This document shows positions 3-11,260 of a stretch of DNA of 11,260 nt, piece by piece. Below the pieces are notes generated by a model. The model saw nothing but the letters and a program-made list of their open reading frames with translations, ran no database searches and was not told the DNA's origin. The position numbers were made by a program, and so were the translations under genes. Within the stretch, counting starts at the first letter, position 1. Each line of letters begins with the position of its first letter. Source of the DNA: Candidatus Heimdallarchaeota archaeon (GTDB lineage: Archaea; Asgardarchaeota; Heimdallarchaeia; Heimdallarchaeales; Kariarchaeaceae); the NCBI GenBank assembly GCA_015523565.1, contig WAKA01000153.1:1-11260 (forward strand), read 5' to 3'.

Positions 3-974
3 CAAATCGATACAAAGGTTATCGGCGGTTTGGTCATTGCAATAAATGAATTTACTGGAAAACCATCAAAAAGAACAATTCGCTCAATTGTGATGAAAGA
101 ATTCACAATAAAATTCTCAACTGAATTAGATGTCTTGTTTGTTTTCATTTCAAAGAAGGGCATTGCTGAAAACGAATTGCTAAACGATTTTGTCAATTCC
201 CTATTGGATGCATACTCCGTGTCTTTTCTGACAGAGGATAACGAAAACATGGAATGGAATGACAAGGTAGCTATTGCATTTGTAAAAATTATCTTGTTGC
301 TTTCAGAGGAGTATCAACCTTCCATTCATTTGGGAGATAAATTGACATTGGATCTAGAGCTTTTATTCTATGAAGCTGATAAGAGCTTATCAAAAGTCTT
401 AAGCAGTATATACATCGAAACTGGTCCCACGATTGAAGAAAAGACAGAGGAAGATGCGGATAGCTCAATTGAAAAAGAAGAACAGGAAACACAAGAGGAA
501 ATCTTGGAAAAAAGCACAATTGCTCTTGAAAAAGAAGCAGAAACGATAGAAGAAAAAACCTACTCGTCAACGGATTCAACCGCCTTTGAGCAAATTCAAA
601 CTAATCCAATAAAAACCATTGAATTTATGGTTCGCAAATTCAACCAATCATTCTCTGATATTGTCTTGACCACTATCGTTCTAACATCAAGTGATAATCA
701 AATTCAAACCATTTCAGAAGGAACACTCGCCAATCATATCTTGGAAAAACTTAATTCAACTGTTCTTGAACTTCTTCCAATTGTCTACTCATTGTGGGAC
801 AAGTCGAGCCAAGAACGAACCCTAGAACTCGGAGAATATTGGGCATTTTTTCAAAAGATAAACGAGTCATCATTCATGTATGTAATCACTAAAACGCAGG
901 ATTCCATTACCCTAATAGAACCTATTCTGGAAAGACTGGCATATTCGATTCAATCAATTGTCCCTACCCTATAA
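3..974 (+). CDS. Hypothetical multidomain protein, 5'-truncated: longin-like N-terminal domain, acidic linker, roadblock/LC7-like C-terminal domain
   Basis: The frame is open from position 3 (QIDTKVIGGLVIAINEF...), so the true start is probably outside the window. The N-terminal pattern D-x2-IGGL-x2-AI-x2-F...IRSIVM...I-x-F...VLFVFIS...helix resembles archaeal longin-like domains. The last ~120 aa show an alpha-beta-beta-alpha-beta-beta-beta-alpha hydrophobic pattern typical of roadblock domains. The fold calls are inference. Confidence 0.6.
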   Translation, partial: QIDTKVIGGLVIAINEFTGKPSKRTIRSIVMKEFTIKFSTELDVLFVFISKKGIAENELLNDFVNSLLDAYSVSFLTEDNENMEWNDKVAIAFVKIILLLSEEYQPSIHLGDKLTLDLELLFYEADKSLSKVLSSIYIETGPTIEEKTEEDADSSIEKEEQETQEEILEKSTIALEKEAETIEEKTYSSTDSTAFEQIQTNPIKTIEFMVRKFNQSFSDIVLTTIVLTSSDNQIQTISEGTLANHILEKLNSTVLELLPIVYSLWDKSSQERTLELGEYWAFFQKINESSFMYVITKTQDSITLIEPILERLAYSIQSIVPTL

Positions 975-5426: not shown

Positions 5427-6524
5427 TCAGTGTCCATTATATCCAAAAATTCCTTGACCTGATGAAAATGTTTCGGCAATCAACGTGTTTTCGTATATAT
5501 TTCTGCAAACACAGTCTATTCCTTCCAAATACTTCAGATTTTGGCTCCCTGAGAATTTTTTAAGGGATTCCTTGATTGAATTGTCACACTTGCCACAATT
5601 TCTTGGTCCCCTGTCCTTGCCTGCGGCAACTGGATCACTGATGACAATGATGTCCTTTCCAAGTCGCTTTATGGCAATTGTGACGTCCAAAACAGTCCAA
5701 AGCCAAGGTGGACTATAACCACCCCTTTTGAAAAGCATTTCCATCAATGTCCATTTGCCAATATAGCATGGATTGATTGAAATTCCATCCACACCTAACA
5801 TTATCATTTGTTTCGCAGAAAAAATTGCATCGTCTTTTGCAAGCTTTTCTGAAACAAAGATTGGCTTGAGAAGGATATATCCCTTGACTCTAAATCCGTA
5901 TTGTTTTAATAACCTGACTGCTCGCTCAAATTGCTTAACCGTATGTCCCTTATTGTTTGATCGTTTGTTAATCTCATCATTCATGGTTTCCTGTCCGATG
6001 GCGACAATGACCCTTGAGGGGTCTATGACTTTTTTCACACTATCCAAATGTTTTTTGATTACGTATTCGCATCTTGTCTCTATAACTATCTCCCTCACCT
6101 TTTTTGAAAATCGCCTTAAGATTTCCTCTCTAACTTCAATTGGAAGTTCCCATGGATCTAGGAAGCTTCCTGAGGTATAGAACTTCACTGCAAGTATTTG
6201 GTCTGAATACTTCTTGCTTTTTTCAACAAACATACGTTCTGCATTATCGGGAATTCTCTTGAGGTCTTCATCAGAGGGGTTCAACGGATTGTCAGAAGGA
6301 AGTGTACAAAATGAACACCCTCCATGTTTTGCTCTGGCATATTTACAAGCCCTAGTTGGCAGTACCATTGCAATTGCCTTTCCCATGGTGCCGTCAGGTA
6401 GTATATGGTTATCAACCCATGAGGTGATCTTTGTGTGTTGTTTTTCCCTATGGCTGTCTGAAATGACCCTTAATCTTCCGATTTCAACTGTAAATGCTTT
6501 TGCTTTCTCTGGACTTGCTCTCAT
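5427..6524 (-). CDS. raSEA: Archaeosine biosynthesis radical SAM protein RaSEA
   Basis: Non-canonical radical SAM motif TRAC-x9-CSFC, plus KFYTSGSFLD, IETRCE, YILLKP, YSPPWLW, RGPRNCGKCD and a C-terminal CxC. Translationally coupled to arcS (ATGA overlap at 6521-6524, GGAGGTGA upstream). Confidence 0.9.
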   Translation of the reverse strand: MRASPEKAKAFTVEIGRLRVISDSHREKQHTKITSWVDNHILPDGTMGKAIAMVLPTRACKYARAKHGGCSFCTLPSDNPLNPSDEDLKRIPDNAERMFVEKSKKYSDQILAVKFYTSGSFLDPWELPIEVREEILRRFSKKVREIVIETRCEYVIKKHLDSVKKVIDPSRVIVAIGQETMNDEINKRSNNKGHTVKQFERAVRLLKQYGFRVKGYILLKPIFVSEKLAKDDAIFSAKQMIMLGVDGISINPCYIGKWTLMEMLFKRGGYSPPWLWTVLDVTIAIKRLGKDIIVISDPVAAGKDRGPRNCGKCDNSIKESLKKFSGSQNLKYLEGIDCVCRNIYENTLIAETFSSGQGIFGYNGH

Positions 6525-8362
6525 GGACTTTCACCTCCGATTCTCTTACGTACTTTGACTGCCGCACCGTTACTCACTTTTTTCATGGATAATCCAGACA
6601 TTATTGCATTGCCAACTGCAAGTGCTTGCTGACCCTCTTTATCAAAAATTATCACCTCATCTCCTGGCGCAATCGCTTCTGAAACTTCTGAAATCCCAGG
6701 GGCAAAAACTGAAGATCCTGAAATTTTATCCCCCTCAAATCTAACCCATGAGACCGTTTGCTTGTTTGATTCCACTATTGCAGGTGGAAATAGCCTTACC
6801 AATCCCCTATTCTCTGTCCAAGTGAGGTAATGCTCTCCTTTACGCTGTACAGCAATCGGTTTGGGTGAACGTCCATGAAATCTTAAATGATCCATTGGCA
6901 ATTCGAAACCATTTCCATGATTCCAATGAATCTGCGCCAAAATAGTATCAATCCATTCTTGGTGGCGGGTTTTCTCATTGAAAAAATAGTTGTCTTCAAG
7001 TTGAATGCTTTTCAATGTTTCCTCAAGACGCAAAATTGCCTCTTTCGAAGTTGGTTTGGTTCCTATCCATGACACCAATAAGTCAAATTCATTTTCCACC
7101 GCTTCAATCATTCCCCTGTAGCCTTCTGAAACATGAACAATAATTTTTGTCCCTTTTGGGATTTTCAACAACATCTTGCGCAAAATTTCTGCTGTCTCCT
7201 TTACTTCTTCAAGTGACCAATCACCACTGACAGGTATGTCATATGATCTTGCAGGGTGTATTGTTTCTAATTCATAAGGAACAACTCCTAACGGTGAAGT
7301 TAATGACCAAGTCTCAACCAACCGCCTTCTGCTTCCCAACGCCCTTTTGACCGCACCAAAAAACAAACGATGTGATCTTGAAAAAGAGTAGGGTTTTTTA
7401 GCGGAACATGGTACCAACAAAAGTATTGGTTTCTGCTTGGGATATGAATACCTTTCAACCAATCTTTGTTGATATGCTCTAACTTCTGGATGAGCAAGGG
7501 ATTCATCACCCGTGAAATAGATGGGATTTGTATGGTCAAACCTGAATTTTGAATAGGACAATCTTCTTTTGTTTAAGATTTTCACGTAGGTCGCAAAAGC
7601 CGGTGAAACATGCATTTCACGATAGAGCCTTTGCCAAATGATGTTTCTGGATACACTCTCTCTTAGCCCTGAAAAATCTCTCCACGTTTCCTCCAAATTT
7701 TCTTCAAGAATCTCCTGCATTGATTTGACCGATGGCTGTAAAAAATGGTCATGGTATGAGAAATGTTCCAATGCAGAAAGATACGGTGCGGCATCATCTA
7801 TAATGTCAACTCCCAAAGCAATCAACAAGGTGTTAAACCCTATAATTCCTGTTTTGGGGACATATAATGCAATGTTTGAGGGAAGTGTCTCCCGTATCTC
7901 CAAAATTTTGTCAATCAAGGTCTCTGGCTTTATTTTATCCAATCTAGGGAATCTTATCACCATTATTGATGGATTGAGCCCAACCAATTCCTCAAGTTCA
8001 GATATGTCCTGTCTCTCTGGATGAAATGGCAACCCAAAAGCGCCCTTTGGATTTATCTTTTCTAACCTGTCCAAAAACAGTCCATATTCATATTCAAAAG
8101 ATTCCTTGAACTCCGTATCTGGAGTCAATAAGGGCAAGTAAATTGGAATTGTCTCCCCCGAAATTTCCTTAAACTTATCTTCATTTTCAAACTCTTTGAT
8201 TGTTTCATTGTCAACAAATATTGGTTTCAGCTCAATCCCAGAAACAATATATTTTCCCTTCTGTGACTTCAGAAACCAAGGTGTCGGCTCATCTATCCTT
8301 GGCTCCACCAATTTCATTTCGCGGACATAGCCATTTTCCCTTATGATCTGAAATTTGCTCAC
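6521..8362 (-). CDS. arcS: Archaeosine synthase subunit alpha (degenerate TGT-like domain, DUF5591 domain, PUA domain)
   Basis: ALGVDIID (TGT-like), LLVPCSAKKPYSFSRSH, LTSPLGVVPYELE, YDIPVSGDW, and a C-terminal PUA domain (SVFAPGI...IAPGDEV...AVGNAIMSG...GAAVKVR). GTG at 8362 is proposed as the start because VSKFQIIRENGYVR matches the usual FEI..RDG.AR N-terminus. The ORF-track start at 8479 would overlap the divergent gene. Confidence 0.88.
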   Translation of the reverse strand: MSKFQIIRENGYVREMKLVEPRIDEPTPWFLKSQKGKYIVSGIELKPIFVDNETIKEFENEDKFKEISGETIPIYLPLLTPDTEFKESFEYEYGLFLDRLEKINPKGAFGLPFHPERQDISELEELVGLNPSIMVIRFPRLDKIKPETLIDKILEIRETLPSNIALYVPKTGIIGFNTLLIALGVDIIDDAAPYLSALEHFSYHDHFLQPSVKSMQEILEENLEETWRDFSGLRESVSRNIIWQRLYREMHVSPAFATYVKILNKRRLSYSKFRFDHTNPIYFTGDESLAHPEVRAYQQRLVERYSYPKQKPILLLVPCSAKKPYSFSRSHRLFFGAVKRALGSRRRLVETWSLTSPLGVVPYELETIHPARSYDIPVSGDWSLEEVKETAEILRKMLLKIPKGTKIIVHVSEGYRGMIEAVENEFDLLVSWIGTKPTSKEAILRLEETLKSIQLEDNYFFNEKTRHQEWIDTILAQIHWNHGNGFELPMDHLRFHGRSPKPIAVQRKGEHYLTWTENRGLVRLFPPAIVESNKQTVSWVRFEGDKISGSSVFAPGISEVSEAIAPGDEVIIFDKEGQQALAVGNAIMSGLSMKKVSNGAAVKVRKRIGGESP

Positions 8363-8485
8363 TGATACTCTTGTCTTTTCATCAAAATAAACTGTTTTGA
8401 TAGCCCCCACATAACTTCCCGATACAATGTTTTTCCGTAAAATCTGCTTAGAATCAAAAATATTAAACCCTTGAACCAAGAGAAA

Positions 8486-8557: not shown

Positions 8558-9427
8558 ATGGCAGAATATTTCAAAGTACAGGAAGACGGGACATTACAAC
8601 CCTCATCAGAATTCAAACAAGAAGCTAACCAAGTCTACCTTGTTATTGACCATGACAAACGTCATCTTTTCCTTTGGAAAGGATCAGAAGCAGGAGTTCG
8701 ACTTAAATTTATCGGATCACGGGCAATGAGCGAGAAAAGGCAGGATTTGGGGTTCCATTACCAAATTCATGTCCTTGATCAAGGAGAGGAAACCCCGTTG
8801 TTTTGGGCCGCTATTGAAGGTAAAGATATTCCTGAGGTCATGCCCAAAAAGAAATCATATGAAATTGAACCTGAAGCTCCTCCAAACCTTGAAGAATTGG
8901 CAAGACAGCAAGGAATTTCTGTTGAGGAGGCTACCCGAGAATTTCAACAGCAAATGGAAGAAGTAGGTGATAAATTCGGAAAAATGGGTGGATTGACAAC
9001 CCGACCTAGAAAAACGCTTCTATCTGAAATGTCATCTGCGGCACCCCCAAGTCCACAAAGGGCATCTGTACCTCCTGCCGCATCAACAACTGTTGCAGAA
9101 AAGCCAAGAAAATCTCAATCAAACCTACTCAAAGAAGCTGTTGAACTCCTCAAGGCACTAGGTGACCTTAAAGGGTATACACGTGAAATGGTCGTTGTAG
9201 GGGATCAAGTTTATAGGGTCAAGGACGAAGTAAATCTTGAAGAGTTGGATACACCATTGGAGGGGATTTTCAGGGTTGATGAATTCACTCCGAGACTTAT
9301 TTGTGAATCTGGCAAAGTGAAGGTCATCGAACTCCTCAAACGTACTGGAACTGAAGAAGACATGGATGAAACCCTTACACAGAACCTCTCAGATCTTACA
9401 AGCATGTTCATGATTGAAATTGAATGA
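8558..9427 (+). CDS. Gelsolin/cofilin-fold protein: single N-terminal gelsolin-like domain, charged/Pro-rich linker, uncharacterised C-terminal domain
   Basis: QVYLVID...LFLWKGSEA...long helix...IHVLDQGEETPLFW matches the gelsolin repeat consensus (DxY/FILD..IYxWxG..S/A...V.V.QGxE...F). ATG at 8558 is preceded by GGTGA; 289 aa. Confidence 0.82.
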   Translation: MAEYFKVQEDGTLQPSSEFKQEANQVYLVIDHDKRHLFLWKGSEAGVRLKFIGSRAMSEKRQDLGFHYQIHVLDQGEETPLFWAAIEGKDIPEVMPKKKSYEIEPEAPPNLEELARQQGISVEEATREFQQQMEEVGDKFGKMGGLTTRPRKTLLSEMSSAAPPSPQRASVPPAASTTVAEKPRKSQSNLLKEAVELLKALGDLKGYTREMVVVGDQVYRVKDEVNLEELDTPLEGIFRVDEFTPRLICESGKVKVIELLKRTGTEEDMDETLTQNLSDLTSMFMIEIE

Positions 9428-9456
9428 AAATTTATTAGAGAAGGTCAATCAAACTA

Positions 9457-9476
9457 CCGAAAAAGATTAATTAATC
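9457..9476 (+). promoter_or_regulatory. BRE-TATA promoter of tRNA-Val
   Basis: CCGAAAAAG followed by ATTAATTAAT, centred ~30 nt upstream of the tRNA 5' end. GATTAATTAATC (9465-9476) is a perfect palindrome. Confidence 0.6.
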
Positions 9477-9500
9477 CCTTTCCGTCTTAACTTTGTAAAA

Positions 9501-9573
9501 GGGCTCGTGGTCTAGGGGCTATGACGCCTCCCTCACACGGAGGAGATCGCCGGTTCAATTCCGGCCGAGCCCA
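9501..9573 (+). tRNA. tRNA-Val(CAC), intronless, CCA not encoded
   Basis: Acceptor stem GGGCTCG/CGAGCCC, D arm GTC...GAC, anticodon stem CCTCC/GGAGG with loop CT-CAC-AC (anticodon 9534-9536), T arm GCCGG-TTCAATT-CCGGC, discriminator A at 9573. Confidence 0.97.
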
Positions 9574-9585
9574 TTTTTTATTTTT
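9574..9585 (+). terminator. Oligo-T archaeal terminator of the tRNA
   Basis: TTTTTTATTTTT immediately follows the discriminator base. Confidence 0.6.
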
Positions 9586-10033
9586 CCTGTATCTTTCTCT
9601 TTTGCAATGCCAGAAACATTCGGAGTGTGAATGAAAGTTCAATAATCCAAGCCAAAAAAAAGAAAATTAATGTGGCATCCTTGTTTATTTTCAATAGAAT
9701 TAATGCAAAGAAAATGGTGAATATCAGAAATGCAACTTGGAATACTGCCCTGTTAATTAACTTGCCCTTTACAAGTAGGAAAGAAAAATTTACTGGCACA
9801 TTGAATGAATTCATCTGTTTTGCATAGTCTGTTACCCTATATGTATTGTCCTTTAATTTTTCGAGATATCCTTTTTCTACAAGCTTGTTGAAATGCCAAT
9901 GAACTGTACTCGCACTGTGTATCCCTAGTTCTCTTTGTGTTTCCCTTATGCTTAAGGGCTCATTTTTTCTTTTGGCGTAAAGGAAAAGTTCAAGCGTCAG
10001 TGGATTCTGAAAATTTCCATTGTCCACTTTCAT
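9578..10033 (-). CDS. Membrane-anchored winged helix-turn-helix transcriptional regulator
   Basis: N-terminal wHTH (PLSIRETQRELGIHSASTVHWHFNKLVEKGYLEK...YRVT), followed by two hydrophobic helices (AVFQVAFLIFTIFFALILL; ATLIFFFLAWIIELSFTL) and a basic tail. Confidence 0.8.
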   Translation of the reverse strand: MKVDNGNFQNPLTLELFLYAKRKNEPLSIRETQRELGIHSASTVHWHFNKLVEKGYLEKLKDNTYRVTDYAKQMNSFNVPVNFSFLLVKGKLINRAVFQVAFLIFTIFFALILLKINKDATLIFFFLAWIIELSFTLRMFLALQKRKIQEK

Positions 10034-10842
10034 TCCTCCAATAGAAGTTCAATCAGATTATTGACTGCTTTGGTGTATGTTGGGAAATGAACCTGCTCTG
10101 TTGCAATATAATATTCATCTGGTTGTTCTGATACCCTGTATCTTGTCCCTTCCCTATTGGAAAAATATTCCGTGAAATATGTAACCCTTAAGAAAAACAT
10201 GTCTTGAATAATTGAAATGTAAAGCAGGGTTCCATCTGTAAAGGAAATTTGTATTCTTATTTCTGTGTTGTTCAAATGGATTTGATTCCTTTTCATTGTT
10301 TCAAAATAAGACTCATTGACGAAATGAAGGTCTTGCATTAAAGATATGTCTTGAGTCAACGCCTCTGAAATATTCTCAAGGTTCATATTTTGCATTTGCA
10401 ATTCCAAATCCCTCCATCCAAAAACAGAAGAATTGTATATTATTCTTCCAAGCCATGTGTTTGAGTTCATGTCCTTCCATATTCTGACGGAATATGTCTG
10501 ATGTGCATAAATTGGAATTCCAACCCCTGCATAACCAAATACAGGTTCTTCACATGGACTGGGTGAGCACGTCGCCTCTATATTTGTAGATTCCCCAAGA
10601 ACTGCATCAATCCTAATTCCTTCCGTAGAAAAGGCTATGATCTCATGATCATTGCTGGCAAACCCTTGTGCCATTGTAAGTCCTGAATTGAAATTCCAGA
10701 CATAATTTGAGGATACTGGAACCATCTTTACAGATTGCTCGTCATTCCTGAATTGCCTCTCAATTGAAAGGGATGCAAATGCAAGCAAAAACACAAGTAT
10801 AAATGCTTGGACAACTTGTTTTGAGTAAGGAAAAACTTTCAT
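10030..10842 (-). CDS. Hypothetical exported or membrane-anchored protein
   Basis: 270-aa ORF with an N-terminal signal/TM segment (VVQAFILVFLLAFASLSI) and a beta-rich soluble region containing a CSPSPC pair. Its stop overlaps the wHTH start (ATGA). No family recognised. Confidence 0.75.
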   Translation of the reverse strand: MKVFPYSKQVVQAFILVFLLAFASLSIERQFRNDEQSVKMVPVSSNYVWNFNSGLTMAQGFASNDHEIIAFSTEGIRIDAVLGESTNIEATCSPSPCEEPVFGYAGVGIPIYAHQTYSVRIWKDMNSNTWLGRIIYNSSVFGWRDLELQMQNMNLENISEALTQDISLMQDLHFVNESYFETMKRNQIHLNNTEIRIQISFTDGTLLYISIIQDMFFLRVTYFTEYFSNREGTRYRVSEQPDEYYIATEQVHFPTYTKAVNNLIELLLEE

Positions 10843-10865
10843 ACATTAGCTGTGACCAATGTAAT

Positions 10866-10907
10866 TAAAATATATATTGCGTGTACAATCCTGTCCAGGC
10901 TCTGGAC
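10866..10907 (-). promoter_or_regulatory. Candidate TATA box (TATATATTTT on the minus strand) with an upstream palindrome GTCCAG-GCT-CTGGAC (10893-10907)
   Basis: The AT box lies ~25-35 nt upstream of the ATG at 10842, consistent with a leaderless transcript. A GC-rich perfect 6-bp inverted repeat sits just upstream of it. Confidence 0.4.
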
Positions 10908-10919
10908 GCTAAAAAAATT

Positions 10920-11260
10920 TTATTCCATTTTGCATTTTCCGAATCTTCCTTGTTCTATATAATATCTATCTGGCAGGATGTTTATAGTTTGAATATCAGT
11001 TCATATCTCTTGTCAATATTCTTTTCAATCAGCTTTGGGATTGTGCTGAAATGAATTCGATCGCCCTTTGCTTTTTTCTTTGGTAACTTCGTTTCTACTA
11101 CATATCAATCTCAGTATCAAATGTTTTTGAAATCAATTTTAAATAAGATATGACTTCTTCTGGATCCAACTGGCTTCTTGGTTTTTCATTCGTTATCCCC
11201 ATCTTTTTTATTACCTTTGTTGCATGCAATGCCCTAATTATCTGTTGATGGGAAAAAAGC
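10920..11260 (-). pseudogene. Possible frameshifted 3' remnant of a gene
   Basis: Protein-like fragments follow one another in different minus-strand frames (LFSHQQIIRALHATKVIKKMG / ITNEKPRSQLDPEEVISYLKLISKTFDTEID / YVVETKLPKKKAKGDRIHFSTIPKLIEKNIDKRYELIF / INILPDRYYIEQGRFGK), with coding-like purine richness. No homolog recognised. Confidence 0.3.

Follow-up and report, generated by a model that had tools for sequence, protein, structure and literature searches.

The window analyzed here, 11,260 nucleotides that make up the whole of contig C153 in a 3.57 Mb assembly (approximately 90% complete) of a Candidatus Heimdallarchaeota archaeon, carries a gene at 8558-9427 that raises two related questions: does it encode a regulator of actin, and what is the domain that lies behind its gelsolin-like N-terminus? 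The first-pass annotation proposed an archaeal actin regulator of the 1DGelX type, composed of a single gelsolin-like domain, a long linker and an unassigned C-terminal domain that it held to be potentially new. In what follows, the gene is delimited and its two domains are placed among known proteins, after which its genomic context and the competing accounts of its function are considered.

The Gene and Its Gelsolin Domain

On translation of the window, the frame is free of stops through 289 codons (Table 1). Because it has 18 full-length homologues (E 1e-28 to 1e-185), it is, on grounds of homology, not a chance ORF; the close relatives that bear names are Heimdallarchaeota and Kariarchaeota MAGs. 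The ATG at 8558 is the likely start, since the closest homologues begin MAEY... or MVEC... at the same place and end ...MFMIEIE, while an upstream TTG at 8471 and a 305-aa gene call (P0002) bring in unconserved residues only. Every segment listed by the first-pass annotation was recovered, at approximately the positions it had given. Within the close clade, mean identity is highest in the tail (78%), followed by domain X (61%) and the gelsolin (Gel) domain (58%), and is lowest in the linker (26%); phylum-wide, the corresponding mean is 32.5% for domain X vs. 31% for the Gel domain.

Table 1. Features of the GelX gene, of the insert that follows it, and of the Roadblock/LC7 genes in related loci. 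Positions refer to the window unless a locus is named.
Feature	Position	Strand	Basis or context
GelX-class protein, complete CDS (P0001)	8558..9427	+	289 aa plus stop
Gelsolin/ProGel-like domain, residues 1-88	8558..8821	+	PDB sequence match and Foldseek
Acidic/helical middle part, conserved, residues 89-158		+	
Linker motif 1, clade-specific, PPNLEELARQQGISV, residues 108-122	8879..8923	+	homologue alignments
Linker motif 2, clade-specific, KMGGLTTRPRKTLL, residues 142-155	8981..9022	+	homologue alignments
Variable Pro/Ser/Ala/Thr-rich linker, residues 159-183	9032..9106	+	predicted disordered
P/S/A stretch AAPPSPQRASVPPAASTT, residues 161-178	9038-9091	+	within variable linker
Domain X, compact alpha/beta, residues 184-262	9107..9343	+	AF2 and profile search
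Acidic hinge (residues 263-272) and amphipathic tail (273-289, core LSDLTSMFMIEIE)	9344..9424	+	
Acidic-hydrophobic tail, residues 268-289	9359-9424	+	
tRNA-Val	9501-9573		in insert
Membrane-anchored wHTH protein (membrane hairpin)	9578-10033	-	in insert
Exported protein	10030-10842	-	in insert
SAM methyltransferase gene and NADAR-domain gene	across contig break		in insert
Roadblock/LC7	L007 3160-3558	-	beside GelX orthologue
Roadblock/LC7	L008 6405-6803	+	beside GelX orthologue
Roadblock/LC7	L009 3623-4021	-	beside GelX orthologue
Roadblock/LC7	L010 2678-3079	+	beside GelX orthologue
Roadblock/LC7	L011 1362-1760	-	beside GelX orthologue
Roadblock/LC7	L012 5515-5916	+	beside GelX orthologue
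Roadblock/LC7	L014 1893-2294	-	beside GelX orthologue

The gelsolin fold supposed for residues 1-88 is confirmed by sequence and structure alike. In a phmmer search of the PDB, residues 1-82 align to a chain of Thorarchaeota ProGel (7c2f_B; E 2.9e-5), and residues 27-84 to gelsolin G3 and adseverin A3 (E 1e-4 to 3e-3; 1.3e-4 for G3). The full-length AF2 model, built on a 17-sequence alignment with a mean pLDDT of 64.6, has blocks of pLDDT 79-89 across most of residues 1-90, with a dip at approximately 51-70; the long helix that should span residues 45-57 is modeled badly in it, residues 53-57 falling below a pLDDT of 50. When the Gel domain was compared with the PDB by Foldseek, 7c2f_B was again best (E 1.1e-6; TM 0.67 by target), all 18 matches at E ≤ 1e-3 belonged to the gelsolin family, and so did nearly all of the top 50. 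The Pfam family Gelsolin (PF00626) scores only 14.8 bits over residues 24-83, under its gathering score of 21 bits, and is matched at E ≤ 0.01 by 29 of 60 family members. We take this shortfall to reflect divergence of the sequence, given that the PDB matches and the fold are in agreement. A second Gel match within the protein was not found; it contains exactly one gelsolin domain, at the N-terminus.

The Gel domain carries an LWKG motif (W40, G42) that is invariant or nearly so in the alignment, as is the segment A45-R55 (AGVRLKFIGSR) in the region of the long helix, which by homology would be the putative actin-binding helix. Alignment to gelsolin G3 places Gln25 at the strand position and Arg48/Leu49 at the helix position, and these are presumably the type II Ca2+ ligand positions of gelsolin, occupied there by an Asp in the first strand and a Glu in the long helix. 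Since these positions read Gln25 and Leu49/Arg48 in our protein, type II ligands appear to be absent and no Ca2+ control would be expected. ProGel is likewise without type II Ca2+ ligands, and their absence fits the Ca2+-independent 1DGelX.

Comparison with characterized gelsolins delimits what is peculiar to the protein. ProGel (PDB 7C2F), the best match of residues 1-88 in both sequence and fold, is a single gelsolin/cofilin-like domain without Ca2+ sites; however, it consists of that domain alone (approximately 90 aa), without linker, domain X or tail. The Asgard 2DGel proteins (7C2G, 7C2H, 7WHF, 7WHG) have the same Gel fold (Foldseek E 2.6e-4 to 3.5e-3), but to it they add a further gelsolin repeat, a WH2-like motif in the center and Ca2+ sites, whereas the second module here is unrelated to gelsolin. 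Eukaryotic gelsolin, villin and adseverin also share the Gel fold, the G3 and A3 domains being the best matches among them, but they comprise three to six repeats under Ca2+ control, and no counterpart of domain X turned up among PDB chains or non-Asgard protein clusters.

Domain X and the GelX Class

A profile of the C-terminal domain (A2), made from 17 sequences of Heimdall type only, was run against 1.84 billion representative proteins and retrieved 103 clusters at E ≤ 1e-3, 22 of them at E ≤ 1e-10. Nearly all of the full-length matches (approximately 250-320 aa) have the Gel domain N-terminal, then a linker, and domain X C-terminal. Among them is the Thor-type protein P0034 (E 3.3e-12 in the whole library); it is the same as the only X-domain gene in one genome of a family (f31) whose other members are named Thorarchaeota. 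Named members of the protein family come from Ca. Hodarchaeum mangrovi (Hodarchaeales), Odinarchaeia, Thorarchaeota, Lokiarchaeota and Promethearchaeota; the Odin LCB_4 member (WEU39881.1) is listed in UniRef as "Gelsolin-like domain-containing protein." The Gel domain of a Thor member matches ProGel at E 5.5e-11 with approximately 35-40% identity, and the published identity of 1DGelX to ProGel is 35% (PMC7444086). In previous work, MK-D1 was credited with two 1DGelXs and GC14_75 with three (PMC9433394), and B35_GelX of L. ossiferum was found to cluster with Thor_GelX (bioRxiv 10.1101/2025.11.30.690169).

Because a profile made from Heimdall sequences only finds proteins built of Gel, linker and X in Thor, Odin, Loki and Hodarchaeales genomes, we place the protein in the GelX class with high confidence, the link to Thor being made through members in Thor genomes and not through the published construct's own sequence. 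In all likelihood, the C-terminal domain is the domain X known from the published 1DGelX/GelX class. The earlier label of 1DGelX type thus suits the protein, with its one N-terminal Gel domain and a C-terminal X shared with Thor-type proteins. The GelX family is real, well conserved and already described, and the gene in the window is its Heimdallarchaeial member.

The family is also widespread. A broader profile (A3; 104 domain-X sequences), run on the genomes of the phylum, found domain X in 364 of 400, and in 88 of the 90 that are of high quality. Copy number is one per genome in the Thor-type family (f31), four to six in the largest family and two in the window's own order. Other architectures were sought among ten atypical matches, on which Pfam gave only Gelsolin or a zinc ribbon, and by a word-indexed search for longer X-bearing proteins, which added one further Heimdall protein and no new architecture. 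As a separate observation, four families (f22-f25; 14 genomes) gave no domain-X match with A3, and three sampled genomes from these families have only a divergent actin, 51-53% identical, where full-length matches in other families reach 66-80%. These genomes are mutually related, and the coincidence of missing domain X and divergent actin is offered as a lead only.

An AF2 model of domain X, from the 104-sequence alignment, has a pLDDT of 83.3 and a pTM of 0.67, with core blocks at pLDDT 88-96. It comprises a helix (187-201) followed by five strands (207-214, 217-222, 226-229, 244-250, and 253-262); the tail beyond it is modeled as a helix at approximately 269-288, with low confidence (pLDDT of about 60). 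The domain is marked by the motifs P.GY.RE, PEG.F...Y.PR and G.V.AIELLK, and G206, R209, G236, R246 and E258 are conserved at 90% or more across the phylum. E210 in X and L280 and F284 in the tail also rank among the invariant residues. Domain X was predicted in 2020 to be a coiled coil by I-TASSER (PMC7444086), a prediction that we reject, the AF2 model being confidently alpha/beta. Nor does it behave as a gelsolin repeat: hhalign of X (104 sequences) against the family's Gel domain (73 sequences) returned a probability of 0.3%.

Relatives of domain X were sought by several routes. It matched no Pfam family and no NCBIfam; Foldseek against the PDB gave nothing at E ≤ 1e-3, the best match being a GAF domain (E 0.25); and VIA-align against 48,161 chains reached at best Z 3.3, with Cache/PAS-type sensor domains, and none at Z ≥ 5. 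Only Asgard clusters were retrieved from the ESM Atlas, as well as by a feature search (at 0.80). A counterpart was therefore found neither in the PDB nor in non-Asgard protein clusters, and the modeled domain X is without detectable structural relative; because the domain is small, we do not claim a new fold. The first-pass annotation had suggested a distinct partner domain, and this stands insofar as X is not a gelsolin repeat and lacks a fold relative. It is not new to this protein: the C-terminal domain is the X that the published GelX class carries throughout the phylum, and this takes away most of the claimed novelty.

Separately, one of the ESM Atlas clusters, a 387-aa Asgard protein with Rho_N/SAP/HeH annotations, contains a region that can be superposed on the modeled X (TM 0.60 by query, 86 residues), and because of this superposition domain X may also occur outside gelsolin proteins.

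Within the class, the protein shares with Thor 1DGelX/Thor_GelX and B35_GelX an N-terminal ProGel-like Gel domain, a long low-complexity linker, domain X and an L.DL...F tail, and Ca2+ ligands are expected neither in it nor in Thor 1DGelX. The Thor members are approximately 30% identical to it in both domains. They differ in having a Pro-rich linker and a Lys-rich end, where the present subfamily has two extra linker motifs and an acidic end (...MFMIEIE). A related tail core occurs as LSDLITFFK in Thor, LSDLVDFFK in Odin and LQDLSKLGI in Hodarchaeales. Across the close clade there is no variation at A115, Q118 and G119 of motif 1 (PPNLEELA..QGISV), nor at M143, G144, P150 and L155 of motif 2 (KMGG...RP.KTLL). 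Profile search detected both motifs only in Heimdall/Kariarchaeal proteins, and the gene would represent a subfamily specific to Heimdallarchaeia/Kariarchaeaceae. When 21 middle regions were run through hmmscan, neither motif matched Pfam significantly. For motif 1, a helix-loop-helix of SAP/HeH/Rho_N or peripheral-subunit-binding-like type was considered and is unsupported, the same scan at E ≤ 10 giving no SAP/HeH match and one E3_binding match (E 0.13). The WH2 signatures LKKV, LRRV and LKDV are absent; the two motifs are only loosely WH2-like, without a profile match. Residues 136-182 of the linker have a pLDDT below 50 in AF2, and the linker varies in length among homologues.

Host Actin Toolkit and Gene Neighborhood

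The first-pass annotation had tied its proposal to the presence of an actin in the same genome. Such a gene is indeed encoded by the host (G000:C57:6197-7300; PF00022, 456 bits, E 9.9e-137); it is of Lokiactin type and 70-80% identical to actins across the phylum. The genome also has a two-domain gelsolin on contig C13 and a second, shorter GelX on C232 (L018 1126-1776, +), a protein of 216 aa with Gel and X that ends IELWRKR and is tail-less. This paralogue lies tail-to-tail, four bases apart, with a gene for a Ras/Rab-family GTPase (L018 1780-2307, -; PF00071 E 1.8e-53). The Pfam family Profilin had no match in the genome, and likewise none in the controls.

In seven of the eight Heimdall/Kariarchaeal loci with enough flank, the next gene downstream of GelX encodes a Roadblock/LC7 protein of 133-134 aa (PF03259 E 2.4e-7 and 7.7e-8), its orientation varying between convergent and co-directional (Table 1). 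The host's own orthologue is on another contig (G000:C140:1984-2382) and is 95% identical to that of L007, a locus from a genome of the same genus. In DNA alignment, L007 follows the window as far as 9433 and picks up again at C140:1975, because of which at least 3.8 kb (window 9434-11260 plus G000:C140:1-1975, L064) appears as an insertion between GelX and Roadblock in this genome. The insert begins just 5' of tRNA-Val, and no integrase was seen in its available parts.

On the other side, and divergent from GelX, are a radical-SAM gene and an ArcS-like gene with a PUA domain (window 5427-8479, -), whose position is kept in seven of ten related loci; this synteny is probably inherited gene order and not a functional link. 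Farther away, an ORF at window 3-974 (+), open at its 5' end, would encode two globular parts with a Glu-rich linker between them, and has no Pfam match at E ≤ 0.01; the first-pass annotation proposed it as a candidate longin-plus-roadblock protein.

Proposed Actin Regulation and Competing Readings

Some proteins with gelsolin-like domains, Sec23/24 among them, are not actin binders. Actin binding by the protein studied here is nonetheless likely, by analogy with its class, and we regard it as fairly probable that the protein regulates actin without calcium, as a member of the Asgard 1DGelX/GelX class and of its Heimdallarchaeia/Kariarchaeaceae subfamily. Thor 1DGelX binds rabbit actin with a Kd of 7.7 uM and has Ca2+-independent nucleating, sequestering and severing activity (PMC7444086). 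Five gelsolin homologues were recovered in a Lokiactin co-immunoprecipitation from L. ossiferum (PMC13716822). A mechanism may be proposed from the biochemistry of Thor 1DGelX together with the ProGel-actin and 2DGel-actin crystal structures. Owing to the flexible linker, domain X and the tail would be able to make an additional contact, be it with the side of the filament, with another GelX molecule, or with a partner such as the neighboring Roadblock. By this contact, a protein that binds monomers or filament sides weakly would become one that severs, caps or sequesters actin. A filament-side second contact was proposed for the C-terminal extension by Akil et al. (PMC7444086). Severing through two sites is a serious candidate for this protein, albeit one that we lean slightly against. 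Because its tail is acidic and it has two extra linker motifs, in place of the Lys-rich end and Pro-rich linker of Thor GelX, its activities may differ from those of the latter.

The gene order described above lends itself to an account in which the protein is a scaffold for GTPase signaling, with X and tail docking Roadblock/LC7 or a small GTPase and the Gel domain serving only as a tether, or having lost actin binding. The downstream Roadblock gene of the related loci and the Ras-family gene beside the C232 paralogue both speak for such a scaffold. Gene neighborhood is not binding, however; in this genome the insertion splits GelX from Roadblock, yet the GelX gene has no signs of decay, and Thor 1DGelX is active on actin in vitro by itself (PMC7444086). 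We therefore consider this scaffold unlikely as the protein's role. Alternatively, X might dimerize GelX, so that two Gel domains act like a two-domain gelsolin and produce severing and short bundles. It is consistent with this that the single Gel domain of ProGel is only a weak actin binder, in contrast to the potency and short-bundle formation of 1DGelX (PMC7444086), and the modeled X, a small sheet with a flanking helix, has a shape that may often pair edge to edge; we nevertheless judge self-association unlikely. Neither the scaffold nor dimerization excludes regulation of actin, and both are compatible with the reading we prefer.

A further alternative would make domain X a highly diverged second gelsolin repeat, so that the protein would be a cryptic 2DGel. 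Among Asgard relatives that carry two actin-binding modules, the nearest are indeed 2DGels, and small strand-rich domains can diverge beyond recognition. Against this stand the hhalign comparison of X with Gel reported above, the absence of any gelsolin chain among the Foldseek and VIA-align matches of the X model, and an order of elements, one helix and then five strands, that differs from that of the gelsolin domain. A cryptic 2DGel is consequently scarcely credible.

For a calcium-independent actin regulator of the GelX class, a more specific proposal may be ventured, in which X and the L.DL...F tail would dock the dedicated Roadblock/LC7 protein, and through its Heimdall-specific linker motifs the regulator would also engage actin monomers or a different partner. 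We put this forward as speculation that is more apt to be wrong than right by a good measure.

The GelX gene is itself an expected part of the Asgard actin toolkit. What the present analysis adds is modest: X is a confidently folded, phylum-wide alpha/beta module that is as conserved as the Gel domain, and orthologues of this gene keep a Roadblock neighbor. Heimdallarchaeia rank with the archaea most closely related to eukaryotes, and the biochemistry of GelX has so far come from one Thorarchaeote only. Members of this subfamily provide a compact construct (289 aa, with a short linker) with clear boundaries for Gel (1-88), X (184-262) and tail (273-289), and are thus suited to experiments on domain X. 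If docking of Roadblock by X were true, it would couple small-GTPase signaling to the severing of actin, and would represent an Asgard forerunner of GTPase-controlled actin remodeling.
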